Below are positions 6,770 to 36,808 of a DNA stretch of 64,000 nt, piece by piece. The DNA comes from Lytechinus pictus (lineage: Eukaryota): positions 11,596,001 to 11,660,000 of the forward strand of contig NC_087251.1 in assembly GCF_037042905.1 (NCBI RefSeq), given 5' to 3'. Both the position numbers and the translations under genes were made by a program. The number at the start of each line of letters is the position of its first letter. Within the stretch, counting starts at the first letter, position 1. The notes under the pieces are model-generated. The model had not been told where the DNA came from. It saw only the letters and a program-made list of their open reading frames with translations, and made no database searches.

Positions 6770-6849
6770 GAAAATTGGGTTTCTGCGGAATGTTAGATCT
6801 AACGTTACTGCTAATACGTTGTCTTTACATACGGGCCAACAACTCTTAA

Positions 6850-9349: not shown

Positions 9350-9841
9350 GAACTCTTCCAGAAATCACAGAGTTACCTGATTTTTTAAAAGAAGCCTGAT
9401 GATCCTTTCATGCTCCCAAGAGTGGATTGATGACAATCTTAGGGAGAATGACACGTCTCTGAATGGAGATGAAAACTAATTCACTTTTCTATAAATTCTC
9501 AAAATTCACCTGTACTTTGTTTTCTTCTCTATCTTGGACTTTTCAAGAGGGATGTCAGTTACTATACATGTATATTCAGAGAGAAAGCCTGGTGGCCCTT
9601 TCATGTTTGAAGAGTTGATTGAGTAAAATCCGAAGGAGATTTTTTTTTTTTTTTTTAATTTCTCTTAATATGTTCATTTTCTTCTCTCATAGGCGTTCTC
9701 CCAGGAAATTATCAAGTCACCTGGGATATCGTGACAAAGCTTGGACGCTTGTATAAGCCCAAAGAGTGGATTGAGGAGAATCAAAAGAAGATTGACTCCG
9801 AAGGTTCAAACTCTCATTTTGGAGATGAAACACATTCCAGT
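9350..9841 (+). pseudogene. Three decayed tandem duplicates (pseudo-exons) of HAAO exon 9884-10032, at ~9350-9482, ~9536-9640 and 9693-9841
   Basis: Each aligns by eye to the functional exon (e.g. gaactcttccagaaa...gatcctttcatgctcccaagagtggattga; aaagagtggattgaggagaa...ggttcaaactctcattttggagatga). Confidence 0.85.
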
Positions 9842-9883
9842 ACCTTGTTAATTCCTCGACATTTATTTTGTCTTTTCGCTCAG

Positions 9884-10032
9884 GAACTCTTCCAGAAAAT
9901 CCACCAGTTACCTTGGATTCAGAGATTAAACTTGATGACCCTTTCATGCTCCAAGAGTGGATTGAAGACAACCGGGAGGAGATTGATTCCAAAGGTTCAA
10001 AGTCTCTGTTTGGAGATGATAATCAATTTAGT
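9884..10032 (+). CDS. HAAO: HAAO exon: (G)TLPENPPVTLDSEIKLDDPFMLQEWIEDNREEIDSKGSKSLFGDDNQFS
   Basis: ctcag acceptor and gtgagt donor; phase-1 start continues the frame; resembles the start of the metazoan HAAO C-terminal domain (P..L..W...LFG). Confidence 0.9.
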
Positions 10033-10089
10033 GTGAGTACTTACTCTATTTCACTCTTTCTCATTTACTGACTATTTCTAACTCAAGTA

Positions 10090-10460
10090 TTCATTGATAT
10101 AGTCACTCAATCATTTACTCACTGAATTCACAAACTTAGTTATTTATTTGGATATTTATTCTCTCATTCATTCACTAACTTGTTTGCATACTAATGAATC
10201 ACCAGCCAGTTCCCTTTACCCATTTGTAATTCATTCACTCAACCATTTACTTACCAATATACTCACTCATTTACTTAATCATATACTCATTTATTTACTC
10301 ACCAATATACTCATCCACTCACCCATTTTCTTATTAACATACTCATTTACTCTTTTATTTACTCGCCGACATACTCATTCACTCACCCATTTTCTCATTA
10401 AAATACTCACTCATTCACTCACTCATGTACTTACTTATTTACTCATTCACTTACCAATGC
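10090..10460. repeat. Degenerate (ACTC/ATTT)n microsatellite
   Basis: Runs of actcattcactcac and tttactc. Confidence 0.7.
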
Positions 10461-10814
10461 AATCATGAAAGGACAAGTCCACCCAAACAAAAAGTCGATT
10501 GGAATCAAAAGGAATAAGCCAAAAAGCATAACACTGAAAATTTCATCAAAATCGAATGTAAAATAAGAAAGTTATGACATCTTAAATTTTCGCTTAATTT
10601 CACAAAATAGTTATATGCATATCCTTGTCATTATGCAATTGAGGAAACTGATGACATCATCCACTCAATATTTCTTTTGTATTTTATTGTATGAATATGA
10701 AAGATTCTAATTTTCTCCTCATTGTCAAGTGAAACAGTGATTAATTCCTCCCTGAACATGTGGAATTAGCATTGTTTAATAACATAATAAACATTCATAT
10801 GACAATAAAATACT

Positions 10815-11047
10815 ATGTCCATTGACCCAAAATGACCTTTTTTTTTACCTTGATCATATGACCTAAGACTTGTGCAAAACAATCAGTGATCCTTGATTCC
10901 TCTCATGTCATGAACTACATCCATAAACTTTCATAGTTATGACATTTCAAAAAATTAACCATGGTTAAGATTTCAATGTTGATGACGCCGCCATTTTCAG
11001 AAAAGCAGCGCTTTTACTCTCGCTCTGCTATGCAGGTGAGACAAAAA
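10815..11047 (-). mobile_element. 5' fragment of the same HINE-like family, inverted
   Basis: GCTCTGCTATGCAGGTGAGACAAAAA is the reverse complement of the start at 18773; part of one repeat unit present. Confidence 0.7.
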
Positions 11048-11083
11048 TTACCCTCTATATGTATATACATACACAGACATGCC

Positions 11084-11444
11084 TTAACGATTAAAGTGAT
11101 CCTTAATTATCTGCTCTCTCCTGAGCCTTCCTGCGACAGCGTCGTGGAGGCCAGGAGGAAGGTGGACACGCGGAGGCATTTCCTCAGGCTCAGGTCCTGG
11201 AATATCTGGCTCGCGCCAGTCAAGAGAGATATTCCACAGGACCGAGCAAGACACTATGATTGCAAATGTAGTGTCCACCTTCAAGCAGAGATAATTGAGG
11301 CAAGGGAACCTCCTTTTCAAACGACCAAAAGACCGCTCAATAATACAACGCCTTCTTTTGTGGGCAGCATAATAGCGTACCTGTGGCCGTCCCTGAGGAT
11401 TCAGGAGAGGGGTCATGAGATACATGTAGGGAAGACACGGGTAC
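11084..11444 (-). CDS. PIF/Harbinger transposase (HARBI1-like DDE nuclease), last exon
   Basis: tttcag acceptor; YPCLP..LMTPLLNP...YYAAHKRRRCIIERSFGRLKRRFPCL...IIVSCSVLWN is the Harbinger DDE_Tnp_4 C-terminal motif set; ends at TAA. Confidence 0.9.
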
Positions 11445-12036
11445 CTGAAATGGAAATTAAAGGAAAAAAATACATGTAAGTCTCTTACTATTAAATTTAT
11501 GTAGGGAATTGGACGCACTAATTAATAAATTTCCTAAGCAATTTATTTCAAAGCAATACAGTAGAAATTAAAAAAATTATGATCCATTTCTTTGTCTTGC
11601 CACAGCTGTTTGCACAAATACAAAGTAATAAGTTGTAAATTCAATCCAAAATGGACAAATTAATTCTACTTACTAATAATGAATTAATGATTAAAAAATT
11701 GTACTTTCTCAGTAAACCACATTAATATCTAATCCCCCCCCCCCCCTTCCCTCAAAGAAAACTATGCTGATGAAGTGAGTTCTTTTATTTTGTGTAGGAA
11801 TTATGGATCCCTTTTTTTTTTTCATTAAGAAAAAATGAAATGTAATTAATTAATTTGAATTACAAGATTAATAAATTGTGGGGGGGGGGGTCACGGTTTG
11901 GGTGCATGTGACATCTCAATAAAGTTTCATTAATTCAGATTATTCTTCAATAGTCATTGAAATTATAACAATTAAACTACATATTTTGGTGTAGGTTCCT
12001 CTAAGATAGGATACACTTAATGACCAGTGTACATAC

Positions 12037-12185
12037 CCACTATCTCCAAGAAGCCACTCAGCACCATCTGCCCTTGCCTCCAGTTGTTCCTTCAGTGAGC
12101 TCTCATTGAAAATTCGGGAATCATGAGTGCTGCCAGGCCACCTTGCCACAATACTTGTTTTTTTCCCAGCAAGATCACAAACTAC
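12037..12185 (-). CDS. PIF/Harbinger transposase exon: VVCDLAGKKTSIVARWPGSTHDSRIFNESSLKEQLEARADGAEWLLGDSG
   Basis: aatag acceptor and GG|gtatgt donor; WPGSxHDSRIF and LLGDSG(Y) motifs; splices in frame to the exon starting at 11444. Confidence 0.9.
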
Positions 12186-12924
12186 CTATTAAATTTGAAA
12201 AAGTAGACATACATGAATCACACATTTACATGTACATTGAACTTAGCTTTGCAGGAAATTCAACTGCTCTTTTCTGATTATTGCAACATATTCTTCCAAA
12301 TGTGTAATTTGACTCAACTGCCTGCAGTAATCTCCCAACATATGAATTTGAATGAGCCTTATATTCGTTAATTGATATGTAAAATCTTAATAAGACCAAA
12401 CATTTAAAATACCCTTTCATAATCATTGATAATGCAAGAAGTTAATAGTTTAATGAATTCAATTTTTGTAATATCCTATTTGCAATATTCAAATGAAGGG
12501 TATGGATAGATGACATTTATAATAATCTATTTAATAATTGCAGTCTTGTGTTGAAACATGTATATGGCCTAAATCAGGGATTCTCAAAGGGTGGCACGCA
12601 CGCCACTTGTGGCGCCAAGAGCCTTGCGGAGTGGCGCGTGGGAGCCGGTACAAAAAAAAGGGGAAAAAAAATAAATAAAAGTTTGATCTACTATTAACCT
12701 GGAATTGAGGTTTAATAATTTTATAACAAAGGGAATACAAAAACTTGACTGTATTTGAAATTTAAATGCTTATTGATTTCCTTGGATTTTGTGTAATCTA
12801 GCATTCGATAACCCTATTATGGAGGATCAATCGGATGGTGTTCTTCTTATTCATTATATTTTTGATGTATTTATTTACGACCAGTTAAAAGACTACGTAC
12901 ATATGTAAAAAAAAAATTTGTATG

Positions 12925-12997
12925 ACTTGGTTGAGAATTAAACCCACGACCTCCCATTCATGAGGCGGACGCTCTACCACTGATCACCATGCCCGGT
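12925..12997 (-). mobile_element. tRNA-like SINE head fragment
   Basis: Minus strand CAGTGGTAGAGCGTCCGCCTCATGAATGGGAGGTCGTGGGTTTAATTCTC with A box and degenerate B box. Confidence 0.5.
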
Positions 12998-14990
12998 TTG
13001 CTTTTAAACATGAATCTCAAGAACAAATGCAGAAACATATTTAACAAACATTCATTTGAGGAAGCCATTAATCATTTTTTTTAAATAGTTTCAAAATTCT
13101 ATATAGAACTTTAGTATCCCCACCTACATGTAGAGCTATCATATAAAGCAAACAAAATTGAAATTCATCAACAAATGAAGGAGAAAAGGTATATTTGTGA
13201 TTTATGAATAAATTTTAAATAAATTAGCACAAATAATTTTCAAGTAAAAATTTCAAAATTCTGTGTACAAGTTTGGTGAACCTTATGAAGCTCTACCATA
13301 CCAGTTGGAAGCAAAAAAATCAAAATCGGTCAAAAAATGAAGCATTTTATGTGAATTTTTAAAAATACGCATAAATTACATGTAGCATAAAAAAATTTCT
13401 AGCCATAATTTCGAAATTCTGTATACATGTTTGGTGAACCTCATGAAGCTCTACCAGATGGAAGCAAAGAAATCAAAATCGGTCAACAAATAAAGAAGAA
13501 GCATTTTTTGTTTAATTTTGAAAAATGCGCATAAATTAACATATTTAATGAGTTAAAAAACTTATGTGTAGATGTTTAGAATCCCCCACCTAGTGCTATC
13601 ATACATATATATATTTTTTTAATTGTGGACGGATGACAATCTCGGGGGGGGGGGGGGGGGGGATGGGGCAAAAGTTTCAATTTCGCCCGTCCTCTACTAC
13701 GCTACGGCTACGCACATGATTATTGTATACTATTATATTTTTTTTACTAATTTAGCCTATCTGTAGACTAGTAAGTTATTTGTTAGGACAGTTCGGGCCA
13801 GGGGCAGGAGGACCACTCACACTAACGTTAGCCTAGCCCTAACTTAGGAAGTCTTAGCTGAGCTCAGTCAAACTCAGCTCACTCACACGTATTGCGAGGT
13901 TAATATTACTATTAGTATTACTACTAACAGGAGGCAGAAGGACCAGGAGGACTCAGGCAGCTAGCTTGCCACAGGCACAGCCTCAGTCAGGTTGTTTAGG
14001 AAATTGGGCTAAAAATACCATGGCATGGAATGCAAATCATCATATTCCATGGTTTCTTAAGTTACTAATGATAGGCCCTATCATTTATTTAATTCGTTTG
14101 AAATTCGCTTTGTCCATGTTACATTGAGATCTAATCAATGTCCACCCTTGTGCGAGGCGAGATCGCGATGATTGAAGGATCGAGCGAAACTCGTGTATAA
14201 CTTCCAACACAAAAGTGAACGAATGGGACTAGCATTAAAACACTGTTGCGATAACGTAAAAAACAACAATGTCATGGTCTTTTCGAATGTCAATTTATTA
14301 ATTTAAAAAATACGAGGTATGGATATAATGTAAATACGAAACTGAATGAAAATAGGCATCGGAAATATAACGATATACTTACGATTTGTGCTTGAACTTG
14401 GCCACTATCACACAGAATGAGGCAGATTTGGACTGAATCGTCTGCAAATTTTTCTTCAAAATTTTGGCGCCAATTTCGATGAAAAAGATGGACAAGTCGA
14501 TTTTGCGCACGCGCGAAGGATTAAACCACCCCAAAGAGCAGTCTAGATTAAAACCAAATTATGATGTAGTTAAACCCCCCGGCGGTTTAAACTTCTTTTA
14601 TGAATCGCAAAATCAAGACCGTGGTCTAAATTTAAACCTTATATGGGGTTTAAACCTCGACCATGGTTTTAACTTCTTTTGTGAATTCGGGCCAAGGAAG
14701 TCTAGAAAAGTATTTTGCTTCTAAGATTGAAATGTTCTAATCTATTAAAGTGTAGATTTATGAGGTGTTCCCTTGAATGGCATTAAACTCAATGCTTATT
14801 CAGGGACTAGTACCCAGAAGTGTTTCATAAAGATTTAAGTCTAGACTAAAAGTCATGCTTAGATTCAAACATACACATGCAATGGGACGTTTGAGTGTGA
14901 TTTTAAGTCAGACTTCGGTCTTTGTGAAACACCCCCTGATTTGTCTATATCTTACAATACATTCATGAGGTTTTACAATTTCCTTTTTAG

Positions 14991-15059
14991 GTCGTGATGT
15001 GGGGAGCTGGATCTGAGTCGGGTGGTTGTGAGGCGGCAGAGGTCTGGCTGTGGCAGCTG
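14991..15059 (+). CDS. HAAO: HAAO exon: VVMWGAGSESGGCEAAEVWLWQL
   Basis: tttttag acceptor and gtaagt donor; 69 nt, phase 0/0; conserved VWLWQL motif. Confidence 0.92.
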
Positions 15060-15224
15060 GTAAGTTTTGACCATGTCTCACAAGACATTATAGTCCTTTT
15101 CACATGAAGAAGAACTTAACTGTTCTATAAAGGCTTTGGAGCGATTAAAATAGGAGTTGAGATTACACTTTTTGAGTACAAAAAAAATTAATCAATTCAT
15201 GATTATGAAATTATTGAGATCAGC

Positions 15225-15600
15225 AATCTCATTTGTAATTTATGTTGATATTGTGAGTAAGAAATAGAAGTTGAGTTCAATCTCTATCAGAAATTGATAT
15301 CAATTTTGTGATCAAGAAATAGAACCTTAGACCACTCACTATTTGACATTGATATCAATCTTGTAATTAAGAAATAGCAGTTTAGACCACTCACTATTTG
15401 ACATTGATATCAATTTTGTGAGTAGGAAATAGAAGTTGAGTTCAATCTCTTTGTGAAATTATCAATTTTTGGATTACGAAATAAAAGTTGAGATCGATCA
15501 CTATTTTAAATTGATATCAATTTTGGTAAAGATCAATCTTCTGGGTTTTTTTTGTAAACAGAGAGGAGTTGAGATCAATCCCTATGATAAATTCTTGATT
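15225..15600. repeat. Degenerate ~55-60 bp minisatellite
   Basis: Repeated ATTGATATCAATTTTGTGA..AAGAAATAGAAGTTGAG units. Confidence 0.6.
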
Positions 15601-16585
15601 TAAGAGCTGATTCGATATCAATCTCTACAATAGAGATTGTACTCCAACAATTGGAGCGCTGTGTGTAAAATCTTGATATGATGTGGCCATGGGGAGAAGG
15701 TGGAATTGCTACTAAATTTAATCAATTTTTTTTGTCCAATGCTTATTTGCATTGTGTGCAGTCGAAATCCATCCAGATTTCAAGGACAACTCCACCACAA
15801 AAGTTGACTTGAATTATTAAGAAGCATAACACTGAAAATCGGAATCGGATGTGAAATTAGTTATGATAATTTAATGTTTTGCTTAATTTCACATAACAGC
15901 TATTTGTGCATCCTAGTCAGTATGCAAATGAGGGTACCGATGACATCACTCACTATGCCTTTTGTGTTTTACTATATGACATATGAAATATTTTAATTTT
16001 GTCCTCATTGTCATGTGAAAGAAAGTGTTATTCCTTCCTGAACATGTGTAAATACCTTTGTTTTAACATTTGTACATCTGTAAAAATTGAAATATTCTAT
16101 AATTCAAACAATAAAAAAATCAAAAGAAATAGTGAGTGAGTGATATAATTGACTCTCATTTGCATATCACTGAGTTGTGCATAAAAATGTTTGTAAAACA
16201 AGCAAATTTTTAAATGTCATAGATTTCTTATTTTACATCAAATATTGATAAAATGTTCAGCGTTATGCTTGTTTAATTTTTCTCTCTACAAATCAATTCT
16301 TTTCTAAGCTGGACTTCGATCTTCAATTCTTTCATCTGAGTATCCTTCTTACCCCTCCCCTTTATTTCTAATAATGTTGATGATTTCATATTATAGTTGT
16401 AATTGGTATTACAACTAAATGATTTGACATTATTCATAATGTAAAATCTTTCAAGTCTTATATTTATTTATTTTCTTTCAACTAAATTTATACTCAAATA
16501 CAATACATTTTCCATACTAATTACTTAGTATTATTTAGTAGTAGTTATAGTACTCCTCACTGTCATATTGTTTGGTATCTTCCAG

Positions 16586-16677
16586 GAGGGAAAGTCAGAC
16601 GTTGGTGTTGGTGATGTCAAGGTTAAGAAGTATGAACTCAACAAAGATGAATGTATGCTGATACCGAAAGGAACAAC
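16586..16677 (+). CDS. HAAO: HAAO exon: EGKSDVGVGDVKVKKYELNKDECMLIPKGTT
   Basis: ttccag acceptor and gtaagt donor; continues WQL-EG; L..D...L.P.GT pattern of the HAAO C-terminus. Confidence 0.88.
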
Positions 16678-17162
16678 GTAAGTATTCTTCCTAGATCCTA
16701 GAAGAGGTTCCTTTTAGAAATTCTAGAAGAATCTTGTTGATTCTATTTTATTATTTTATTCATATTAACCTTCATTTTCTTCAATTTCATAAATTTTCTT
16801 AATTTTTCAAACAAAATTCATGCAAAGTCAATATAAAGAATATAAATATATGCAAGTTATATTTACAGAAGAACGCGTAGCAAGTAGAGTTGACGAAATT
16901 GTATGTTATAGAAGTTTAAGAAAAACAAACTTTATTGAATGTAATATTTTATCAGCTGACATCACAATTAAACATCTAAGAGATGGCAGAACTTGAACAC
17001 TTTAGATATGTTCATTTTCTGGTGGGGTTCGCAAACTTTTCAGCACCACTGTATGTGTAATATAATGAAGTACTACAAATTGTTATTGAAATCAAACATA
17101 ATTTTTTTCCTCAAACCATCCTCACCAAACACTGTTTGATATATTCTTTTTTGTTGCAACAG

Positions 17163-17262
17163 ATATACAGCCACAAGGGAGAAGGGTTCCCTCTGTTTGG
17201 TGTGCTTCCAAGATCCTAGACGCAAGAAACCGGTAGCAGCTAAGCCATCAGGAGACCAGTGA
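17163..17262 (+). CDS. HAAO: HAAO terminal coding exon: YTATREKGSLCLVCFQDPRRKKPVAAKPSGDQ*
   Basis: gcaacag acceptor; phase 2 matches the preceding donor; GS..L...QDP..KK motif; TGA at 17260-17262. Confidence 0.88.
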
Positions 17263-17286
17263 AACTCATCTTCTACACATCCCTAA

Positions 17287-17690
17287 AGCCCAGTGCACAC
17301 TATGCCATCAGATGCGACAGGATTTTTTAGTAAATCGCATTTTGTAATAAATATTAAAGTTCCAGATGTAAAAATTATTTCATTTGAATTTTGGCATAAT
17401 GTTAGGTATAATAAAATCATTATTTTGCTTTGCAGCAAGCCATGTGGCCGGAAAAAAAATAAAAATTGGTTTCAAGTCGCAGCCGATGACATCATTTGGA
17501 TGATTTGGATTTGAATTTGCTTTCATTCCTACAGGGAGGCTCGAACTAGACTGAATTTCGATTTCAGTAGTCCTACCAATATTCTCATCTCTGATCACTA
17601 AGATTTTATTGGTTGAAATGTTCATATCAAATGTTATTACAATTTCTTTGAAATTGGGATCGCAACGAATCACATAGTGTGTGCTGGGCT
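17287..17690. mobile_element. Harbinger-type MITE in the HAAO 3' UTR
   Basis: TIR AGCCCAG..CACACTATG; TSD TAA (17284-17286 and 17691-17693). Confidence 0.8.
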
Positions 17691-18772
17691 TAATGGCTGA
17701 GCTGCACAGAGAGAAGATTGAAATTAATTGAAATATACTGCTACACAAAGGAAAATTTTGTTTTCGTCGCAAGTTTTATAGGTCTATATGAAATTTTTTT
17801 TTATACCTTAAAGGTAAAGATGAATTGCAAATATATTGCTCTATAAGGGGTAAACAAGTTTCACCTCAGTATATTGAATTTTCTTGGAGGTAGAAAAAAA
17901 AAGATATGAGATATCTATATCATGTTTCTTTCAAGAATAGACATTGCTTTGACGATTTATAGGAAGGATTGAATTTTACTGCTGGATATGGGAAATATAT
18001 ATATATGTTATCCAAGAAAGATCTACTGCCATATTATATATACTGGATATATTTGATAACTAGTTATACAAATTCCAAGAGTAGTACACTTATTAAATGT
18101 ACAAATGCCATTCTAGAGTATATTTTTATTATTTTCTGTATTTCTGAAATTTAATGAGGCTATGAAGAAATATAACTTTGATTAACAATCAGTACTGATA
18201 ATTCCTGTCTTGAATAGTAAATGATTTCTTAAATTTATTTTTATCTGAAGTTATGAAATTTATGGTAGATATGTAAACACCACAGATCTGCCCAAACAAT
18301 ACAGATGTTACTGTAATTATATAAACATATGATCATTTTGATGGCATAAAGGAACTTGGCAGAGCCAATAAACTGCATCATGTTGCAGCATTATTTGTGA
18401 ATATATGAGCTCCACTTATGTGCTATCACATTTCTTTTTATGCAAGTGCTTCATTTGTTACATATATGAATAACACTGCGCTTTTTTATAGATAATGTTT
18501 AATGGCTGTAAACTAGCTCACCCCAGTTAATGTATATCCCGATCAAAATACATTTTGATGCATATGTGAACAGGGGTGTATTGCTTTGGCTTTATGGCAA
18601 CATTTCTTAATGGGACCTTTAGGGAGGTTTTGAAGCATGTGATGGTGCACAACAATACAGCTTTGTAAGCCATTCTCATGCCAGGGACTCTTTCATGAAG
18701 CTGTTTTTAGAGAGTTACTCATGATTACGAGCAAATGAATCATGTTCTTGGATGCTATATCAGATTCTCAAT

Positions 18773-19700
18773 TTTTGTCTCACCTGCATAGCAGAGTGAG
18801 ACTATAGGCGCCGCTTTTGCGGCGGCGGCATCAACACCAAATCTTAACCGAAGGTTAAGTTTTTGAAATGACAGCATAACTTAGAAAGTATATGGACCTA
18901 GTTCATGAAACTTGGCCATAAGGTTAATCAAGTATTACTGAACCTCCTGCCGAGTTTCATGTCACATGACCAAGGTCAAAGGTCATTTAGGGTCAATGAA
19001 CTTAGACCATGTTGGGGGAATCAACATCAAAATCTTAACCTAAGGTTAAGTTTTTGAAATGTCATCATAACTTAGAAAATATATGGACCTAGTTCATGAA
19101 ACTTGGACATATAGTGAATCAAGTATCACTGAACATCCTGCATGAGTTTCACGTCACATGACCAAGGTCAAAGGTCATTTAGGGTCAATGAACTTTGGCC
19201 AAATTGGGGGTATCTGTTGAATTACCATCATAACTTTGAAAGTATATTGATCTAGTTCATAAAACTTAGACATAAGAGTAATCAAGTATCACTGAACATC
19301 CTGTGCGCATTTCAGGTCACATGACAAAGGTCAATGAACTTTGGCTATAATGGGGGTATCTGTTGAATTACCATCATAACTTTGAAAGTTTATGGATCTG
19401 ACTCATGAAACTTGGACATAAGAGTAATCAAGTATCACTGAACATCCTGTGCGAGTTTTAGGTCACATGTTCAAGGTCAAAGGTCATGTAAGGTCAATGA
19501 ACTTTGGCCATGTTGGGGGTATTTGTTGAATTACCATCATATCTCTGTAAGTGTATTGGTCTAGTTCATAAAACGTGGACATAAGAGTAACCAAGTATCA
19601 CTGAACATCTTGTGCGAGATATAGTAGTTTTCAAAGTCAACACTGCTGCTATATTGAATCACGTGATGCAGGTGAGACCGCCAGAGGCATTCCACTTGTT
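18773..19700 (+). mobile_element. Helentron-associated non-autonomous element (HINE/DINE-1-like) with an internal tandem array
   Basis: Starts in a T-run; sub-terminal inverted repeats GTCTCACCTGCA (5') and TGCAGGTGAGAC (3'); short (GCG)n; about 5 tandem units of ~150-190 bp (CATGAAACTTGG...AATCAAGTATCACTGAAC...TCACATGACCAAGGTCAAAGGTCA). Confidence 0.75.
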
Positions 19701-24010: not shown

Positions 24011-24494
24011 CCGTAGGATGGGGGGGTCGGGTGTCCGGACACTTTATATTTTTGAAGCCTTCTTTTTTGTCTTTGGATTACACTAAAAATATGAATTCAA
24101 TACTTATTAATCATCTTCTATTTTGTTCTTTATAATATTTCCTAACATTTTGTATACCCAGTTGTTGTGTGTCCGGACAGGTTGTGTGTCCGGGCGATCA
24201 ATTTTAGAAAGTCATTTGGAAAAATTTACAAGGAAAGTTTTATCAATTTTTAGTACAAAATGTCAGGAAATATTATAGAGAACAAAATAGAAGATGATTA
24301 CAACTATTGATTTCGTATTTGTAGTGTAATCCAATGACAAAAAAAAAGGCTTCAAAAATATAAAGTGTCCGGACACCCGATCCCCCATCCTACTAAAAAT
24401 TGATGAAACTTCGCTTGTAATTTTTTCCAAATGACTTTCTAAAATTGATCGTCCGGACACACAACCTGTCCGGACACACAACAACTGGGTATAC
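24011..24494. repeat. Interlocked inverted repeats (A-B-A'-B') rich in TGTCCGGACA; Tc1/mariner-like MITE derivative
   Basis: ~24011-24153 is the reverse complement of ~24254-24393; ~24151-24255 is the reverse complement of ~24392-24494. Confidence 0.7.
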
Positions 24495-24669
24495 AATACA
24501 AGCTCGGTGGAGTGACGCTGCTGAGCTGAGTGCTGATTTTCAGTGCATTGGCCATTGCATTGCGGTATTTTGATCTGCAGACTGCATTTCTGGTGAATTC
24601 TATATTTCTAAAACGAGGGAGCAATATTTGTAGACCAAGGGCCGCGCCGTGTTCTGAAAATTGTCTTAA

Positions 24670-27180
24670 GGACGTTCCACAGTTAAAGTAAAATCCATGT
24701 AATTTTCACCAAACTTTGCACATAGATACTTTAGAACCTTAATATTCGAAATATGCAAAAATTAACATAGGTCCATGTGCTTGATTTTTTGCTATAGAGC
24801 TTCAAAGTTCACCCAAATTGATGTTCTTAAGAATTGCGCATTCAAAAGAATTTGGCATTTTTAGACCTCCCAAGATTACTACAATGAGTTTAAACCTCTA
24901 TTACTCAGTCAAAATACATGAAAAAGTCATCAAATTTCGCAAGAGAGTTAATAATTGTATCGTTATAATGGAGAATCTATTTATAGTGCTATATGTTTGC
25001 AATTTTAAGTTTAACAGCGCTGTCATTTCTTTAAAAAGGCGTAAACGATAACAAAATCCCAATCTAAAAAATGTAAAATTTCAGTAACAAACTACAAACG
25101 TACAATAAATGCTGCACTTTATTCAAAATCCATGTCATTTTCACCAAAATTTGCAGAGTTGTAGAGGAAGGTATACCTAAGGCCAAGTAAAAAAAGAAAG
25201 TAGTTGATCGTCCTCGCGCGCATCTATTTTGGCCGCCGCATGAAAATTTTTACTATTTACTATTTTCAAAAATTGGCTAAAAAAAAAAAAAAAAAAAAAA
25301 AAAAATTGTGATGTTTCTCGTCCGCGCCCGATTCCCTTTTTGATAGCAGCATCAATTGTCTTGATATTTACTATTTTTATGGCTTCTGAGTAGCGATTTT
25401 TTTTTACAAGATTGGCAAGCGATTTGCTCCCATGTGCTCTGGGATCTCTCTCGCAACTTCAAAAACAATTGCTAAAAAAGTCCGATATCGCCGTAACTGC
25501 AAGAAAGAAAAAAAATTCTGATTTGGTTTTTTATTGGAATTTTGAAGATACCATCATAAATTAGCAAGAAAATAAAGTTTGCAAACTCGGAAAAGATCAC
25601 GGATTTCTTCATTTTTAGTGCATTTTCGGGGACCCCGCTTCATGAATCTGAACTAATCCGTCGCGTGCTTTGGAAATATGGCGCAGATAAATCAATTTTA
25701 ATGACGTAATTTGTATTTTAGCGGGTATTTTGGTGAGTGATAGCGCCTGTACTTCGATGTGTATTACGATGATTGACTGTGCTTGTGTTGGGTGAATGCA
25801 TGTGTGCTGGGCATGGGATGATGTGATTGACTGTGCTGGCGCGACATGTGAATTTGTGAAATGGATTGAATTTTCTGGCGAGTTTTCTAACGTCAGCAGG
25901 CAATGCATTGAATATTCAAAAAATTATTTCAAGATTGAAAATCATTAATGGGATTCCAGTAAGTGCCAATTCTGTTCAAATTTGATAAACTTCATTCTTC
26001 CTTGGGCTATTCGATTTGATGGACAATTGTAAAAATTAGTTATAGATCTAACACTAACAGTTACAAATATTGAAATAATAAACATTACTGGTATGTGAAT
26101 AATTAACAATTAATTCAATAATCATTTAACATTTGATATCAATTAAAAGATGAATAAAAATTGAACAGTATTAAACATTATGTAAACGAACATACAGCCA
26201 GCTGGAAACTGCAACGCGAAACCATGCCCAGAGCTAAAAAAGAGATTGACTCTGGAAAACTGAACATGGCTCCATGGTAATGAAAATTACCCCCCCATGC
26301 ATTTTTTACTCTTACATATATATTAATATGGAATAATGTTTAAATCATTCACTTGACATGAACATTTTGTTTTACAACAATACAGTACCGGTATACATCA
26401 GTAATACATCAATAGATTTTATTGCAATATACATTTTCCATAGATTTCCAATCAATTGTATATATTATGCATATATATCTATATATATATATTTCTACTC
26501 ATAAATTATCAATATTGAGCATGCATCGATCACATAATTCGAGCTTGACATGGCCTGACAATCATTTGAATAAAAAATAGCAAAAAAAAAAGTAAATAGT
26601 AAGGACCTCCCTCATCACTGATGTCAAAAAACGGGCCGAGAAAATGCCCCCTTGTTTTCAAAAAAAATAGTAAGATAGCAAATAGTAAGGACCTCCCTCA
26701 TCACTGCTTTAAAAAAACCCGGACGATCAACTACTGTCTTTTTTTACTTGGCCTAAGAGGTACAAACATTAAAAAATAGGGGTTCATGTGCTTGCTTTTA
26801 AACTATCAGCATTTTTATTAGAGCAAATGTGCTTTTTAAAACACCAAAAATGCGCCGAATGCTTTGTATCTATGTGAAGAAAAAAATCAAACCACTCTAC
26901 CATGTATTCAAACTTGGGGTAATATTCGTGATTCTTGGCAGCAATGCAGAGTAAAGTATTTTGAAATTGTAGAAATTTTTTTTTGAATGGTCCATGGAAC
27001 AATTCCATTTTTTAGCTTCATGAAATAACGCATCGGATCTGCAGTTAAAGTGCAGAAGATGAGAAAAATCAGCTCATACCCGCAGCTAATTAATCACCTG
27101 TTCATCCATTGTGACGTCAGCGCGCAGAGTGTAAACTATGCGCAGATCATAATGCGCACAAACATAAGTGTGGAACGTCC
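24670..27180. mobile_element. Non-autonomous Kolobok-like element
   Basis: TIR GGACGTTCCACA; TTAA TSD (24666-24669 and 27181-27184). Confidence 0.8.
25181..26753. mobile_element. Non-autonomous Zator-like (or Harbinger-like) element nested in the Kolobok-like element
   Basis: 33-bp TIR GGCCAAGTAAAAAAAGA.AGTAGTTGATCGTCC; 3-bp TSD TAA. Confidence 0.8.
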
Positions 27181-27685
27181 TTAAGAGAAATATTCTTGTA
27201 GGGCCTAATTAAATAGGCCTAGTTACAATAAAATCCGTATTCCGAAAATTCTTGTATGATGGTGGTCCCCAAGTCTGCGCACCTAACGATTTGAGTTAAG
27301 ATTTAACATGAACTTCTTTTTATTTCACAAAATCTCTCTGTTAATAATGTTCCTTATAATTATTATGAGTAAGTGTACCAAATATCTCATTAAAATTTGA
27401 GAAAATATAGGATTTTCTTTAAAAAACTTTGGGCAGTCATTTTCAGATTGAAAAAAAAAATGGTACCGGTACCCCATGTCTGCACACCCACTCACTTTGC
27501 ACACGATTCAGGTTTTTTTTATGAGAAAGGCTGCATTTTGAGGCCGTCACATGCAATGCCCAAAATTCATTATTTTTCCATCATTTTGAGTCGGATTTTT
27601 TAATGAATATCTGTCTATGTGCTGCATGAGTAAATTTTGTGTTCGTTGCGTATCTTCTTTTACTAGAATCGCGCAGATATGCGTG

Positions 27686-28495
27686 TGCGCAGACTTGGGG
27701 GAACTTGCCATACCTTTTCTTGTAACTTTCGCTAAGTGCGTATGATGTCAGAGCTAGAATTATGCGGAAAGTTAAAAACGGCGGATAAATATCCCTTTGC
27801 GCAAGATAACATATATCGAGATAAAAGGTATCTTTGACTTTGCGTTCTGTTAACTTCCTTGCAAAATACAAGAAAATTTACAAGAGGTAGGGAGCCAAGG
27901 GCCGATTGCACGAAAGGGTCTTTCCAAGGACCATCTTTCGTGTCGCCCATCTTTTATGATGCGCTGTTTGCGGGATTTTCTGAAATGTATGATAAACAGA
28001 CAAGGGGGACTGCGCAGACTTGGGGGAACTTGCCATACCTTTTCTTGTAACTTTCGCCAAGTGCGTATGATGTCAGAGCTAAAATTATGCGGAAAGTTAA
28101 AAACGGCGGATAAATATCCCTTTGTGTTCTGTTAACTCCCTTGCAAAATACAAGAAAATTTACAAGAGGTAGGGAGCCAGGGGCCGATTGCACGAAAGGG
28201 TCTTTTTAAGGACCATCTTTCGTGTCGCCCATCTTTTATGATGCGCTGTATGCGGGATTTTCTGAAATGTATGATAAACAAATGAAATTTGTTAGCTAGC
28301 ATTTTAATCGATTTGTATACAATTTCCTGATATATCACATCATTTTATAAACAAAGATTTTGTTTACTCTAACAGATGAATAAAATATGTTTGCAGGTAA
28401 TTTATTTAACATGTGTTTCACATGGCGTATCATAATAAATGGGCGACACGAAAGACGGTCCTTGGAAAGACCCTTTCGTGCAATCGGCCCATGGG
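27686..28495. repeat. ~325-bp tandem duplication (27686-28010 and 28011-28281) overlapping a MITE-like inverted repeat (28177-28495)
   Basis: TGCGCAGACTTGGGGGAACTTGCCATACC... repeated; GGGCCGATTGCACGAAAGGGTC... occurs twice on + and once inverted at 28430-28495. Confidence 0.75.
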
Positions 28496-29493
28496 TTGTA
28501 ATAAAAAACGTTTTTTTATAAAAAATAAAAAAAACGTTTTTTATTGTTTTAAAATGTTTAAAATCGTTTTATTACATTTTTTTCCAACAAATAATGCAAC
28601 TTTTCGTAAATCAATTAAACTATACGGTACAGTCTGATTTAAGCTCTTGATGTTTTAAACATATTATTGGAGTAAGTAAGAGAAGACTACAATGTTTGTT
28701 ACTGAATTTCCAACAGAAAAATTCATTTTTCCCAAAAAAAATTACTAAATCATGGAAATTGAATGCCACCCCCCCCCCCACTAAAGTTGACATTTCATAA
28801 GTTAATTCCTCATACATGTGTATATACATGTAGTCCCGGTGTATTTTTAGTCTTGTCAATCTGGGGGGGGGGGGGCGAGAAGAATTTGCACAATGGAAGA
28901 AAATGACATACCGGCACTGTATAATCTATGGAGTTCAAAGCTTAATTGATTTGAATCAATTATGCCAATTTTAGTTCTTTAGTTAATATAAATATTAAGC
29001 CCTTGAACTGCTTTTTTCAATTGAGGAATTTACATGTAGATCAAATGCATAAAAGATAAAAAATCAGTATAAAAAGTTTTTTTCATTTTTTTTTTAAATG
29101 GAAATTATTGGCAATAATTTCAATTAACAAAAAGTACAATAATGATACAGATTTTGACAAGAATTTACAATTGACTTTATACATGAATCATGTTTTTAGC
29201 AATTTGGGGTCTGACATGCACTTGTTGTGTAATATCATAACCGCATACCCATGCATGCATCCTAAAATAGTCTTGAATGATATGGCGTACGTGGCCCTGT
29301 CACGTTATAGATTTATCATATAAATTTTTGAGGGGGCCATTGAGGTCCCCTGGGATTGTTAGGTGTAAGGTTTGCTAGCTGATTATCTTATACTGTTTAA
29401 AGTACTTTTCTTCATCTTTACAAAGCGCAAAGTGTCACCTGCTTTCGTGTGTACTTCAAGAGTAAGATGAAATGGAAGTGTTGCACAAGCATA

Positions 29494-29848
29494 GGAGGAG
29501 CCGTGTTGTAGTGGTTCTGACTCTCGCCTTGTAAACAGAGGGTCGTGTGTTCGAATCCCACCGCGGTCTGGCGTCCTTTGGCAAGGCGTTAATCCACACT
29601 TTGCCACTCTCGACCCAGGTGCTAAATGGGTACCCGGTAAGATGTGAAAGTCATTGTAGCTTCTCCAGTTCTGTGTGCGCCTCATCGGCGACTGACTGGA
29701 ATACTCCCCAGGGAGTGGAGGATGTGCATACATTGTGTGCGGGAATGACTGATTTAATCCAATGACCGGGGTAATAATATATCTCTAAAGCGCTTAGACA
29801 CGTCGTTTCGATGTATTAAGCGGTATATATAAGCAGATTATTATTATT
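29494..29848 (+). mobile_element. tRNA-derived SINE with L2-like 3' tail
   Basis: A box (TGTTGTAGTGG), B box (GTTCGAATCCC), tail AAAGCGCTTAG...TATATAAG-(ATT)n; 7-bp TSD AAGCATA (29487-29493 and 29849-29855). Confidence 0.85.
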
Positions 29849-30049
29849 AAGCATAATAATGTTTTACAAACCGCCGCCTTCCCGCATATTAGCGCGGACT
29901 GCGCGTCGCCCTCCCGCTCAAAGGTCGTTAGCGCAAACTGCACGTCGCCTTCCCGCAGAAAGGCTGTTGGCATGCAGTTAAGAGTGCGCAAACGGCCTTT
30001 GTGCGGGCAGGCGATGCGCAATCCGCGCTGACGGCCCTTATGCGGGAAG

Positions 30050-33034
30050 AGGGCCAGAACGTGTTGAAAGTGCGTCAAAAGTATATTCGGTGTTACATTT
30101 TTACGTTAACATGTTGATTATGGATAATTTTGGGCGTAGAATCGACTGAACATAATTTAAAGCCGATATGACGTCACTTTGATACCAAATCTTGATTAGC
30201 TACTTAAAACCTATCTGTGAAAAGACAAATTACTCTAAACAATGTGCAGTATATAAACTTTGTGTTATGTGTTTCTTTAAGATTGACCAGAGTGAATGTT
30301 GGTTTATGCTTCTCACATGCCTAAAAAGTGTGTATGAGATCCTGAAAATAATTTTATGGCATCAAAATGATCATTAGATTTAAAAAAAATACTTAAAAAT
30401 CTGAAAAATATTAACCGTGCTTTATCAAGTGGCGTAGACTTGGGTAAAACGCAAAGTATAACACCACGAATGTTTTACTATGAGGAGGGTTTTTTGCTGA
30501 AATTATTCTACAAGTAACTTTTATATCTGGAAGAGGGGCGGGTAGCCCTAATATTAGTGCTGCAAGTCAGGCGGCATGTTCGGGTTCGGTTCGGTTCGGC
30601 ACGGTTCGGTAATTTTTTTCCGAACTTTGGTTCGGTTCGGGGTTCGGCAATAAATGCCAAATTAAATTTAACATATAAAAAAATAAAGTTCGCCGACCCA
30701 CGAACACATAAATTCCCGAACGATCTTTCATATATTTATAATAAATTTTGTTTCTAAAAAGAATAGTTATGAAATTGTTGCATAACTTTCTTTTGTTTTA
30801 ATCTTTAAACAAAAAATATGAGTCATTTCTACTTTCATTTTTAAAATGAAAAAAAAAAATCAAAAGAAAAAAATATTGATAACGAGAGAATCAGGACATT
30901 AACAGAATTACAAAGAAAATAATTTTTTTTTTTCATGATTATTTCATGTAGCTAAGACCATGATCGATTACAATGTCATTGCCAACGCAGCTTCTCAAAT
31001 TGGAAAGTGTTGATCGGGAATGTCGAAACAGTAGACAAACAACCTCAACTCAACTGTTATTATACTGGTAAAATTCACATTCCAAAGAATATGAAATGTT
31101 TTAGAAAGTCCCTATTTTCTGAAAAGTGGTTAAATCTGGTCAATCAATTACTTTAAAAAGATAAAATATCAGTCCATTCTTGGTCCAGAAAGATCGACGC
31201 TACGCGACTTCAAACATATTTCCAACACGAAAATGAGTACATGGGACTGTACTGTGTATTTTAGTGTTGTGAAATCACTCGGCGATGATCGTCAGAACCA
31301 AGACGGAACTGATAATTTATTATTTCATTTTCAGTAATTGACCAAATTAAACCACTTTTTTAGAAAATATTGACAACGGAAAAACATTTGAAGTTCGGAA
31401 TACGAATTTTACCTGTATAATAGCAACTGAGAGCAGGTTGTTTGGACTTCCTGTTTCAACTTTCCTTACCAACCATTCGATTTCCGGAACATCGATCAGG
31501 GAACATGCGTTGATTTGGTTTGAATTTTTATCTTTTCTGTTTTTTTTTCAACCTCATTCCTTCATCTCTTATTTATTTATCTTTTATATTAATATGGAAA
31601 TTTCAGAAGGTGGAATATATTTACTTTACCATTACTTTGTCAGTCACAAGGAATTAATTTATGTCTTGTATTTTTCTTTTTTAAATACAAAACAATTAAA
31701 TGTACGTCGGATTAGAGCAATACGTAATTCAACTACACTTTTTAACTGAGTTAAGCTTAAAATGTCCCCACGTTTTATGAAGAAAAAAATAAATTCATGT
31801 TTATAAAAAAAATTGAAAATGATACAAACTTAATCAAACACGAGACCGAAGCTGTCATACTTTGTCATTTACAAGGAATGAATTTATGTCTGGTTCTTTT
31901 TCTTTATTAAATACAAAATGATTAGGTCCGATTACGATCACGATCGATTACGGCAATACGTAATTAAACCACACTTTTATACCAAGTTTAGCTTCAAAAT
32001 GTCCCCTCATTTTATCAAGAAAAAATATATTCATGTTAATAAAATATTCTTAAGTTGATAACAGTTCAATCAAAGACGAGATGGGAGCTATCAAAATAGA
32101 TTTAAAAAATATATAGAGTGGAATTCTTTTTGTGCACAATCACTAACCAATATTTTTTTATTTTATTTTATACTTAAATATATGTAGTCAGTGCATTATT
32201 GCATTGCAAATATTATTATTATTTTTTTTTTCCCGAACTACCGAACCAGGCCTTTGTGTTCGGTTCGGTTCGGTCCGGTTCGGAAGTGCCAAGTTCGGTG
32301 AACTTCCGTTCGGTTCGGCAGTTCGGCTACAGCACTACCTAATATGCATTATCAACCTTTATTTTGTTTGCATTATGCCCGGAATTCATGTCATTTGGAA
32401 TGGAAGGGGAATCGTACTCGCCATGCAAAAATAAACGGCAATGTACACCCTACACGGTGCGCTGCGATGACTGCGCTGTATAAAAAGACCGTTTTTTAAC
32501 AGGTTTTGGGGGTGTTCAGTCAAGTAAAATCGGCTCTAACATGAAAACGGGCAGCTAAATTTGGTATTGACTTAAAGCTTTAATAGACATATAGCAAAAT
32601 GATGATGATAGATTTAAACGGAAATCCAAACGTTTCTAATGTTAATGCAAAAAACATGTATTATCAGCCTATTTCAAGGAATAATTATCCCATAAACGTC
32701 CTGAAATGTGTCTTATATCTAATTTGAACCCTTTCACACGAAAAAAGAATATATCAGGATTATGTGGGTGCCATTTCAGATTCCTACATGAAAAAACCTC
32801 TTGTGAAATGGCTTGTTTTTCAATTAAGTTGTCATATATGTGGCATTTCGCAAAATGTCACATTTTACGATTTGAGGGAGGAAATTAACAACCTTTATGC
32901 AAATTCCCGAATGAAATATTTTGCTGAAGTATTCTTCAAAGTGTTGTCTTTCAGCTGGGCATGACAAAAATTAAAAATCTATAATTGCCCAAAATGACTT
33001 TTGGCGCAATTTTGTTTCGCCCCGGCCCACTGTG
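30050..33034. mobile_element. Non-autonomous Transib-like DNA transposon with RSS-like bipartite TIRs (left heptamer lost)
   Basis: Right end read inward: CACAGTG-GGCCGGGGCGAAACAAAATTGCG-CCAAAAGT. Left end: (A)G-GGCCAGAACGTGTTGAAAGTGCG-TCAAAAGT. The two align without gaps. The element interrupts the host palindrome gggaag|gcggcggtttg. Confidence 0.7.
30555..32337. mobile_element. Non-autonomous hAT-like element nested in the Transib-like element
   Basis: TIR TAGTGCTG(C/T)A; perfect 8-bp TSD CCTAATAT (30547-30554 and 32338-32345); subterminal TTCGG/CCGAA repeats at both ends. Confidence 0.85.
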
Positions 33035-34875
33035 CGGCGGTTTGTAAAACATTATTATGCTTGTGCAACACATCCATTTCATTCAAGAACTGCAATGTAT
33101 TTGAGCTTATTTTAAATGGTGTTTCTTTCCCTGTCCAAAAAGTGAGCACAACAGATATTTTGTTGAAATAAGAATATTCTTAATATGGATTGATGTACAA
33201 AATTGAACTGGGAAGAAAGGAACATGACAAAGAGAAAGGGAGAATGAAGGGGGAAAGAGAAAGAAAAGAAAAAGAGTGGTGTTGAGAAAGAGTTTTAATT
33301 AGAAGAAAATAGTACACCACTTCAGAAATAAAAGTATGAAAAAAAAAATTCATCTAAAATCACATCCATGCAAATTTACAACACCCAAGCCTATGTGGTG
33401 TTTTAAAACATGTTTAAAAAAAAAAAACGGGTGTTTTAAAACACACCGTTTAAAACGTGCCAACCCTGTAGGGGGCTATTGTAACTTATTGTTGCAAGCG
33501 ATATTTTTCCGTCTGCAATAATTATTTCTTGCTGCATCCCGCAAGAACATCATGTTTTACAAAAGGAGACATTCCAAAGACATAACGACGGATTGGTAGA
33601 CTTTTCAGCAATTAAAAATTGGTGTTCGAGACGATGAATCTTTTCAGAGAAAATATGTCTCTGAGAATAGCCACATGTATTTTTAGCACAGAAGCGCACA
33701 AGCATAAGCATCGGGGCGCAAGGAAATTACGCCTCATCAACAATGCGCTTCATAATTTTTCAGAAGAGACGCTTCTATTTGTTGACCTAAGCATATAAAA
33801 AGCTTAATGATTGGTGGATGATGAAATATTGGGCGTGTCAGAGATAAAATAGGGGACGTCCTTACAGAGATAAGACAATTTTCAGAATACCAATTTAAGA
33901 GAATTTTAGCGAGCTGTTATCTTGCTGACTTACAAGAAAAGTTAAGACAATTTTCAGAATACCACCCCAAAACTGCTTCGGTCTCTGTTACATGTATGTT
34001 GGTTGTTCCACTGAACTCCGTTAGCTCCACTCACCAAGTCCAAGAAATAATTTAAAAAAATTTAAATGTTTAAAAACTCCTCGAAACAGACGGCTCCAAA
34101 ATCACATGCATCGCGAGAACTTGTTCCAAAGCAATGCGATCATTTTTGTAACAGTTGCAGATTGGTATTTAAATTATGATTTTGGTTGAAATATAAATTG
34201 TTTTTGCTGTTTGACTTTGATTGGTGAGTGTTTAGATCTGTTTAGTTTTTAAGAAGACGCTGGGTCGATCGCCCAGGTTTGATTGATCCCATGATTGCGC
34301 ACTCAAGCGGATAGATTTTCGACAGTGACATGTATATCGTCAATTGCTATCTGTACCAATGGTTGAATGTGGAAAAAGCTCCAGGACATAACAAATATAT
34401 AATTTTACAGCATTATTTTTAAGTGTGAACTTTTTTTTATAAGCACTGTATAGATCTAGGGGGGGGGGGGGGAACCTTCCCAAAATGTTGCTGAAATTTC
34501 ACATTTTACATTTTAATGGTGTCCTACATATATTTCACAATTATGCCTTAGTTGTTTACTTATTTTAATTTTTTATTTTTGGTGTTAGGCTTATTCCTGT
34601 TGTTCTGTATATATACAGTCAGGATAGACATTTTATTAGTTTGGCAAACCAATAAGAAATTGCATGTTTAAGGATGCTCAATGAACACATGCTCCCATGT
34701 ATTCATCAATGTGATTACATGTATATTAAAAGTGGGTGTGAGCTTAAGTTGAAATTTCTTTATCAAACAATCCACCTGAAAGGCACCTTCCATCAGAATT
34801 ACCCATCTCTGACAAAAAGTACCCTTCACATTTTGCATAAAATTGTGTTATGAAGTAAATTTGCTCTTTTTTTAA

Positions 34876-36808
34876 AGGACAAGTCCATCCCAACAAAACG
34901 TTTATTTGAATAAAAAGAGAAAAATCCAACAAGCATAACACTGAAAATTTCATCTAAATCGGATGTAAAATAAAGTTATGACATTTTAAAGTTTCGTTTA
35001 ATTTCACAAAAGAGTTATATGCACATCCCGGTCGGTAGCAAATAAGGGTACTCATGACATCACTCACTCACTATTTCTTTTGTATTTTATTATATGTAAT
35101 ATGAAATATTCTAATTTTCTCCTCATTGTCCTGTGAAACAAAGTTTTATTTCTCCCTGAACATGTTGAATTACCATTGCTTAACATTTTATGGTTCAGTG
35201 AAGTTGGTCTTCATTGTCAAATCTGCAAAAATTGAAATACATGTAATCAGGCCTCTACAAATTTTTTTTTGTCCCTTGCCCTGTTGGGCAAGTGATGAAA
35301 AAGTTTGCTTGTCCGATAGAAAAAACTGCTTGCCCTATTTGTTTTATTTTATTTTTTTATTGTGACGGCACTATTATTTTTAAAGGTCATACAAAATAAC
35401 AACAATTGAGAATCATGTACAGTCTAAAAAGAACACACATTTAAAAGTTTATTTTCAGCAACGTAGGCCTGAGTCATTACGTTTATTTTGATTTTTTTTT
35501 CGCTATTTATAAATGGGGCTTAGAGTCTAATTTAAGGTTTAAAAAAAAAACCTTCACCAAAAGTTGCTAAAATTTCATATTTTGCCATATTTCCTTAGAA
35601 TTGTTTTGATTTAATTGGAAACTATAAAGAAAGCCAGTGAAATATATTCAGCTCTTCATTGACTCTGAAAAAGATCGTTTTATGATGTTAAAAAAAAAAA
35701 AAAAAATCGAAAGTGGAGTGGCTAAAATTTCACATTTTGCATCTTTAAATCCATGAAATGATCATTTATTTTCCATATTTCCTTGAATTTTTTTTTTTTT
35801 AACAAGTTGGAAACATTCAAGTAAATTGAGAATATTCACCTCTCTCTTGTCTCTTCTTCATCATTTTATGATGTTACACTCGGTCAATGTTTTTTTATTG
35901 TAGTCCCGCATGTAGACTTTCATGGTTTTTTTTTCATGATGTTGCAGCATTGATCGTTGATCTTATCGTTTGATCGTTTTGATCGTTTTACACTTAGTCA
36001 ACACCAAGAAAGTCTGCATGTGGGACCACAATAATATAAAACATTTACCGAATGTAACATCATCATAAATCAGAGTCAAGAAAGAGAGTCAAGAAAGAGC
36101 TGAATATTCTTCATTTTTTCAGTAGTTTCCAACTAAATCAAAACAATTTCATGGTAATATGGAAAATAGATAGCCATTTCATGGATCTTTGCAAAATGTG
36201 AAATTTTAGCCACTTTTGGTGGGTTTTTTTTGGTGTGCATCGGCAAATTGCTCAAGTAGCGCATGCGCAGTCATTGCACACATAGAACGTAAGATGCGAT
36301 GGCACGGTTTTTCGAACGAGGTACCTGGCGATAAATTATTGGAAATTGGCGCTGATTTTACATCATTTTCCACTGGTTTTTTTTACTGGTTTGACATAAT
36401 CTGAGAGATAGTTGTGATTATCCAAAAGATATTGAAATTTAGAGGGTGTACTATTATATTTTTTTTCCAAAAAAAAAACTTGCCCGATCGGGCAATTGAC
36501 TTTGAGAAATGCTTGCCCGCACATCATTTTCACTTGCCCCGGGCAAGCGGTTTGTCGCACCCTGCATGTAATGTATAATTCGAACAATAAAAAACAAAAG
36601 AAATAGTGAGGGATATCATTGATTCTCTTGTTTGCATGTGACTAAAATTGTGCATATACATGTAACTATTTTGTGAAAAATAAGCGAAACTTTAAAATGT
36701 CATAACTTTCTTATTTTACATTCGATTTTGATGAAATTTTCAGCATAATGCTTGTCTGATTTTTCACTATTGATTCCAATCAACATTTTTCTGAGGTGTA
36801 CTTGACCC
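34876..36808. mobile_element. Kolobok-like MITE of the AGGACAAGTCCA family, interrupted by a hAT-like insertion; related copies or fragments at ~10470-10780, 15783-16320, 20340-20820, 22660-22922, 49185-49740 and 63033-63840
   Basis: TTAA-AGGACAAGTCCA...CTTGACCC-TTAA; shared internal motifs AACACTGAAAATTTCATC.AAATCGGATGTAAAAT and TATGCAAATGAG. Confidence 0.75.
35248..36564 (+). mobile_element. Non-autonomous hAT-like element, copy 1
   Basis: Ends CAGGCCTCTACAAA and TTTGTCGCACCCTG; perfect 8-bp TSD CATGTAAT; subterminal TTGCCC/GGGCAA repeats. Confidence 0.85.

Follow-up and report, generated by a model that had tools for sequence, protein, structure and literature searches.

When a Tc1/mariner element is excised, its transposase cleaves the non-transferred strand at a position within the element, and the 3′ overhangs that remain are converted into footprints through end joining (PMC8151067, PMC2874221). 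In the case of Tc1, the breaks carry 2-nt non-complementary 3′ overhangs (PMC4490562), and taCATGta is among its recorded footprints (PMC3520976). The landing places of these elements are biased as well; the target consensus of Sleeping Beauty is ANNTANNT, in which A at -3 and T at +3 are the most conserved positions (PMC8934666), and that of Tc1 is CAYATATRTG (PMC9635669). The octamer TACATGTA is also described as a promoter motif (motif-1/AM-20) to which PsMyb37 binds in Phytophthora and, further, as a homeodomain site of the Irx type (PMC3520976, PMC11134190). We analyzed 64,000 bases of Lytechinus pictus (contig NC_087251.1, positions 11,596,001 to 11,660,000; hereafter, the window), which is animal DNA of 36% G+C with abundant dispersed repeats, and found a field of TACATGTA copies that are probably excision footprints of CA-ended Tc1/mariner elements in which both 2-nt overhangs were retained.

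With Tc1 of C. elegans, the window shares the identical taCATGta, the duplication of TA, the logic of 2-nt 3′ overhangs, and an AYATATRT-like target bias (PMC4490562, PMC9635669). Sleeping Beauty and ZB similarly target TA, leave scars of terminal bases by non-homologous end joining, and have the A-3/T+3 consensus (PMC8934666, PMC8151067, PMC7913693); the Sleeping Beauty scar, unlike TACATGTA, comprises three terminal bases (CAG), is non-palindromic, and adds a net of five. In Phytophthora, the same word is plentiful in non-coding DNA (PMC3520976, PMC11134190) but is taken as a binding site, a footprint origin having been weighed and dismissed (PMC3520976), whereas the urchin octamer arises as a 6-bp insertion. 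In essence, TACATGTA behaves like a Tc1-type footprint, its density and uniformity being unusual, and it likely belongs, though the case is not complete, to the class of Tc1/mariner footprints. Scar fields of this type in animals were not described in the literature searched by title and opening of the abstract, which left subscription journals mostly outside.

Abundance of TACATGTA and its insertion at TA

A direct word count over the whole window gave 40 copies of TACATGTA between 2557 and 61012, and Markov models of order 2 to 4, trained on the window after deleting the six added letters, predict 2.2 to 2.9 (p ~1e-33), so the first-pass annotation was right that the octamer recurs many times. 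The copies start at 2557, 9565, 11421, 11471, 12227, 13125, 13377, 21228, 23247, 28825, 29031, 33989, 34716, 35238, 36657, 38742, 39138, 39585, 39916, 39922, 40685, 41528, 41799, 47455, 47558, 49810, 50562, 51647, 52995, 53603, 54822, 56795, 59574, 59773, 59932, 60192, 60327, 60499, 60757, and 61005; two positions given earlier were slightly off (9564 for 9565 and, for a sister octamer, 6793 for 6794). They occupy 0.8% of the TA sites of the window, i.e., about one intact copy per 1.6 kb. Among the 16 palindromes of the form NN-CATG-N′N′, only TACATGTA is clearly over-represented (the runners-up have 9 copies vs 5.3 expected and 3 vs 0.9), which is indicative that the enrichment is specific to TA flanks, and its single-mismatch neighbours have 0 to 7 copies each compared with 40. 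Two octamers with one TA in common form a tandem pair at 39916..39929, which we read as successive scars, slippage being possible.

Repeats within the window were used to compare filled and empty sites. Six letters were deleted at the octamer, and the gain in alignment to the paralogue was compared with that of 65 other 6-letter deletions. At 13125..13132, in a local repeat that is matched near 13591 by a paralogue with a plain TA, deletion of the octamer gained 8 and was equalled by none of the 65 controls (one of one paralogue), with one 1-bp gap needed in a C run. At 13377..13384, also in a local repeat, it was the best deletion for the copy near 13225, which has a plain TA (one of two paralogues), and for the other copy 2 of the 65 controls were equal. 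The octamer at 36657..36664 lies within a dispersed repeat resembling a miniature inverted-repeat transposable element (MITE); a plain TA is present in the copies near 22780 (+ strand) and 34990 (- strand), and the full gain, gap-free at the site, was obtained against two of six copies, the remaining four gaining 0.5-3. All three pairs had been proposed earlier and stand up to the deletion test. At 9565, deletion of the octamer was again the best, yet the paralogue is without a clean TA; the gains at 2557 were weak (2.5-4.5, equalled by 1-7 of the 65 controls), and at 33989 the same test gave no alignment gain.

The octamer at 11421..11428 (- strand) lies in the last exon (~11087-11443) of a HARBI1/Harbinger transposase relic and adds two residues (MY) that are missing from 9 of 9 HARBI1 homologues, as expected from the earlier description of an in-frame insertion in a Harbinger exon. 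The two last exons of this transposase (11087-12185, - strand; DDE_Tnp_4) are 90-98% identical to the protein P0001, and the closest named relatives of the exon come from Lytechinus pictus (90% identity), L. variegatus (81%), and Strongylocentrotus purpuratus (79%). Residues 184-350 of P0001 alone map to the window, where the first 183 have no counterpart, so the copy is a truncated relic, and for this reason the MY insertion is no evidence that a functional protein tolerates such a change. The accompanying proposal that scars can add two codons to proteins therefore holds as to the reading frame, but its sole example sits in this relic.

We then compared the orthologous stretch at 59350-61950 (2.6 kb of the 64 kb), which holds eight TACATGTA and three copies of a sister octamer, TAGGCCTA, in four runs (X1, X2, X10, and X11), based on the differences listed (12 of 81 indels, 40 of 171 substitutions, and 15 of 31 joints). 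Run X11 was near-identical to the window, and X1 and X2, which represent a related urchin (organism A), were about 5% divergent (96 differing letters of 1,849 in one X2 contig); X10 reached 2 of 30 bins, none of them over this stretch, and supplied no outgroup. At the empty TA of the window at 60835..60836, X1 and X2 insert TACATG after 60834, which creates the octamer, and X11 is without the insert; this is one event in two samples, the direction of change not being set by any outgroup. At the octamer 61005..61012, X1 drops six letters in four pieces (61007-61018), which is readable, depending on the alignment, as an empty TA with two substitutions. Extra bases inside a duplicated TA, relative to an empty site, are thus found at 60834, 11421, 13125, 13377, and 36657, and the six letters are identical at these five unrelated sites, i.e., the insert is constant and independent of its flanks. 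As a separate observation from the same stretch, a second haplotype of X11 has a 60-bp deletion (60274-60335) stopping exactly at the end of the 60327 octamer; nine intervening letters at its junction are similar to downstream sequence, a structure suggestive of end joining that took in a templated insert.

Flanks, decay, and placement of the octamers

Of the 80 pooled sides of the 40 octamers, 42 have T at +3 (A at -3), compared with 0.34 for all TAs (p 5e-4; as one of 32 cells, ~0.02 after correction), and an NRT flank is found on 27 of 80 sides vs 0.16 (p 1e-4). The T+3 bias persists against GTA, TGTA, and ATGTA controls (p 0.002-0.006) and after excluding the seven sites that fall within purine-pyrimidine tracts, which leaves T on 34 of 66 sides (p 0.001). 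This bias matches the Sleeping Beauty and Tc1 consensus sequences and hence supports an origin as Tc1/mariner footprints.

The single-mismatch neighbours of TACATGTA total 76, compared with 45-53 expected, and the excess is present in transitions only (37 vs 15; transversions, 39 vs 36), as expected of neutrally decaying scars. The mean scar decay that this implies would be roughly 7-9%, about the depth of the organism A split or somewhat older. The first half of the window holds 11 of the 40 octamers though it has 54% of the TAs (p 0.001), and the densest patch, eight copies in 1.5 kb at 59574..61012 (p 0.0007 vs random TA sites), lies about 3 kb downstream of a probable CpG-rich first exon at 56.3-56.6 kb, predicted from the sequence; over 4-kb bins, dispersion was not above chance (p 0.34). 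Self-matching repeats have 3 of 40 octamers but 22% of the TAs (p 0.017), a shortage that is expected if the repeats are younger and that could also arise because an insertion may break a match. A Penelope-like retroelement (42300-46340) has zero octamers in 137 TAs, which is uninformative since about one is expected.

A metagenome scan for two nearby octamers gave at least 118 loci, which are a pattern-selected set and not a random sample. Octamers beyond the seed pair were found in 19 loci, and 99 of 118 failed the density filter; dense examples are L186 (12 octamers in 4.7 kb) and L161 (12 in 12.9 kb). The dense loci that were checked are gene-poor, with short kinase, Tudor, and reverse-transcriptase frames (Pfam matches in 5 of 69 frames), and on these grounds look eukaryotic. 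The T+3 bias is also present in the 19 dense loci, where filtering left 63 of 146 vs 0.31. Purine-pyrimidine tracts hold 43 of their 116 sites, L166 and L187 being tandem repeats, and the sole informative paralogue pair listed (L170) is ambiguous. In 120 viral loci, obtained with tandem-octamer seeds, no dense octamer fields were found (105 had the seed cluster only, 14 had two clusters, and one had three), and a repeat-family motif from the window matched 0 viral and 0 metagenome contigs. One metagenome contig (L122), which has four TACATGTA, carries a 415-bp TA-flanked element with CAGTG ends at 587-1001; by analogy it would be the kind of donor that a footprint model needs, but it belongs to another organism.

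Probable excision footprints and competing explanations

Under the footprint reading, a Tc1/mariner-type transposon or its MITEs with CA...TG ends would have inserted at TA, duplicating the TA, and would later have been excised by cuts two bases inside each end, so that each flank would be left with a 3′ overhang of two non-complementary nucleotides (CA). If end joining then kept and filled in both of these, the product would be TA-CA-TG-TA, a net gain of six. Repeated in the germ line over millions of years, this could generate the present density of intact scars and, alongside them, an older set eroded by transitions. What was observed directly is that six letters are added at TA without variation, that the flanks are biased, and that the copies decay; a transposase, a full-element intermediate, and the repair path are what we infer from them, and the dominance of the +6 scar suggests that, in the germ line of urchins, breaks are joined after fill-in.

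Several results weigh against this reading. The T+3 bias is not significant relative to non-octamer CATGTA (0.47, p 0.61), a control set that may include decayed scars, or for sides with a purine at +1 (18 of 44, p 0.19), and purine-pyrimidine tracts hold 7 of the 40 octamers vs 7.7% of TAs. The relative is substituted within the octamers at 59574 (C>T at 59576) and 60192 (G>C, in some contigs) and, likewise, inside the TAGGCCTA octamers at 60341 and 60484; these changes would fit scars predating the split, an origin by substitution, or misalignment. Between 59350 and 61950, no full element was found at octamer sites in the four runs, among the differences listed. A +4 class is not in excess (62 vs 57, a comparison of low power). 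In worms, the taCATGta footprint is termed rare (PMC3520976), and Tc1 breaks in the germ line are repaired, with polymerase theta involved, into a varied set of 26 products in 103 (PMC4490562), whereas here one fixed product prevails and occupies 0.8% of TA sites; a single dominant scar in urchins would therefore need a different repair path. A donor was likewise sought in the window, and no CA-ended element flanked by TA and complete at both ends came to light; the check proposed in the first-pass annotation, for a transposon with a TA target-site duplication and matching CA ends, thus yielded none that is two-ended. No Tc1/mariner transposase domain was found in 300 of the 347 window frames of at least 52 aa (the other frames fall largely within the Penelope-like element), nor in 44 shorter ones between 14.2 and 17.1 kb. 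At 17032..17053 (- strand), a lone TA+CAGTG end, without partner or transposase found, is a candidate donor end, and we take it to resemble a Tc1 terminal repeat. Its best in-window partner has 9 mismatches in 26, and against public contigs it gave 0 viral matches and one bacterial match, a chance match without a partner end. The earlier attribution of the octamers to Tc1/mariner excision is in this way strengthened by the constant +6, the flank bias, and the neutral decay, and is left without a donor or transposase in the window.

The contrast between 40 scars and no complete CA-ended donor in the window, together with the dominance of one product unlike the varied worm germ-line spectrum (PMC4490562) and the transposase-like flank bias, could be accounted for if the six letters were stamped at TA without lasting insertion, through abortive integrate-and-excise cycles or by a domesticated TA-targeting transposase or nuclease. 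Donors, however, can sit outside the 64 kb searched, and the candidate Tc1-like end at 17053 is present, so we regard such direct writing as improbable. We know of no enzyme of such kind. Selection of TACATGTA as a transcription-factor site (Irx-type homeodomain, or PsMyb37 in Phytophthora) would by analogy agree with the documented binding (PMC3520976, PMC11134190) and with the densest patch lying downstream of a probable first exon, but it is quite unlikely as the explanation here because the octamer occurs as an insertion within a truncated transposase exon as well as within dispersed repeats, decays by transitions, and is substituted in the relative at two sites; moreover, binding accounts for retention and not for the constant +6 origin.

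A comparably small probability is given to an origin in which microsatellites of alternating purines and pyrimidines decay and, with point mutation, yield the octamer incidentally (e.g., from TATATGTA). TACATGTA itself alternates purine and pyrimidine, the tract sites counted above (7 in the window and 43 in the dense loci) extend such tracts by at least six letters, many metagenome matches are plain TA/CA repeats, and the C>T at 59576 in the relative would agree; yet 33 of the 40 window sites are without such tracts, every single-mismatch neighbour is scarce (0 to 7 copies vs 40), TAGGCCTA is not alternating, and the clean +6 pairs refute this route for the bulk. It probably covers a minority of sites, the two to three expected by chance and a few more. 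Least probable of all, and very much so, is generation by slippage (6-bp tandem duplication) or by flank-hairpin P-nucleotide footprints of the hAT type. The tandem pair at 39916/39922 speaks for slippage, but these two are the only ones, out of 40, that lie in a period-6 run spanning at least 12 letters, the added CATG neither copies nor mirrors the flanks in empty/filled pairs, and a constant insert independent of its flanks refutes both for the bulk.

Beyond the window, we tentatively consider a wider proposition, possible but at present the less likely outcome, that unrelated eukaryotes have in common a germ-line mutational signature, TA to TACATGTA, that acts genome-wide and is as yet undescribed. 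Its uniform scars would far outnumber surviving elements, concentrate in open or transcribed germ-line chromatin, imply germ-line fill-in end joining, and seed Irx/Myb-type sites, and the Phytophthora motif would perhaps be of the same origin. If the window is typical, extrapolation gives hundreds of thousands of scars per urchin genome. A plain word count could then chart earlier transposon movements that escape repeat annotation, the elements themselves having disappeared, and the scars, datable by their decay, would report germ-line break repair and transposase landing places; urchin population genetics would gain markers that keep the reading frame. Motif discovery would be misled too, since enrichment of TACATGTA is then no proof of selection for binding.

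Sister octamers and other elements of the window

In a ranking over 136 TA-N4-TA words with Bonferroni correction, TAGGCCTA is significant (8 copies vs 0.37-0.9 expected; 8.5e-7), TACCGGTA (4 vs 0.31; 0.039) and TAGATCTA (5 vs 0.7-1.4; 0.10) are borderline, and TAACGTTA is not significant (2 vs 0.3-0.4; p 0.03-0.06 uncorrected). The eight TAGGCCTA start at 2358, 27214, 36826, 46490, 54607, 60341, 60484, and 61752 (2358..61759), and between 6794 and 57694 there are five TAGATCTA (6794, 26043, 34451, 53733, and 56488) and four TACCGGTA (26386, 27464, 57184, and 57687). At 6794..6807, TAGATCTA and TAACGTTA are nested with one TA in common, and a comparable GATC/GGCC junction is found at 56488. 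The TAGGCCTA at 2358 is the only sister site with paralogues; a 6-letter gap persists after deletion, so it carries 12 extra letters relative to 5 of 6 copies, and at this sole testable site the paralogue test did not reveal a clean 6-bp insertion for a sister octamer. The first-pass annotation had listed four recurring sister octamers and proposed five families differing in their end dinucleotides; an excess over expectation is borne out for TAGGCCTA, borderline for TACCGGTA and TAGATCTA, and not significant for TAACGTTA, and besides CA only the GG family (TAGGCCTA) is clearly enriched, no sister having proved to be a 6-bp insertion at the sites compared. By extension from TACATGTA, TAGGCCTA is probably the outcome of the same process from a GG-ended family.

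The word TAGGGCTA/TAGCCCTA was observed in five copies (39731, 46452, 61982, 30550, and 13841) vs 0.64 (Bonferroni 0.07) and is possibly a further scar class or decayed TAGGCCTA. Two +5 classes are borderline, namely, TACAGTA/TACTGTA, which corresponds to the Sleeping Beauty type of scar (20 vs 9.4, Bonferroni 0.055), and TACCGTA/TACGGTA (8 vs 2.0), the latter with two copies in duplicated repeat arms and one that is a repeat end. A rearranged fold-back element with a left TA+CCGTA end at 24009..24496 is a possible, unproven CC-ended donor for TACCGGTA. At 52597-52987, a 391-bp element can be read as TA+CC-ended, but because a TTA duplication fits too, we excluded it from the donors.

Other inverted-repeat-bounded elements lie at 25188-26746, 29854-33057, and 38919-39331, in addition to that at 52597-52987; the element at 25188-26746 has, as we read it, TAA flanks and GGCC ends, a presumably Harbinger-like arrangement. 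The Penelope-like retroelement has reverse transcriptase and GIY-YIG frames (43539-45563, + strand) and is flanked by two direct repeats that are 97% identical. A TTAA-bounded MITE-like repeat is present in two 97%-identical copies 55 kb apart (6846-7435 and 62260-62850), and 6043-6705 is an exact tandem duplication of period 363. An exon at 4559-4975 (+ strand) matches 3-hydroxyanthranilate dioxygenase (Pfam 3-HAO, E 7e-5, under the curated cut-off).

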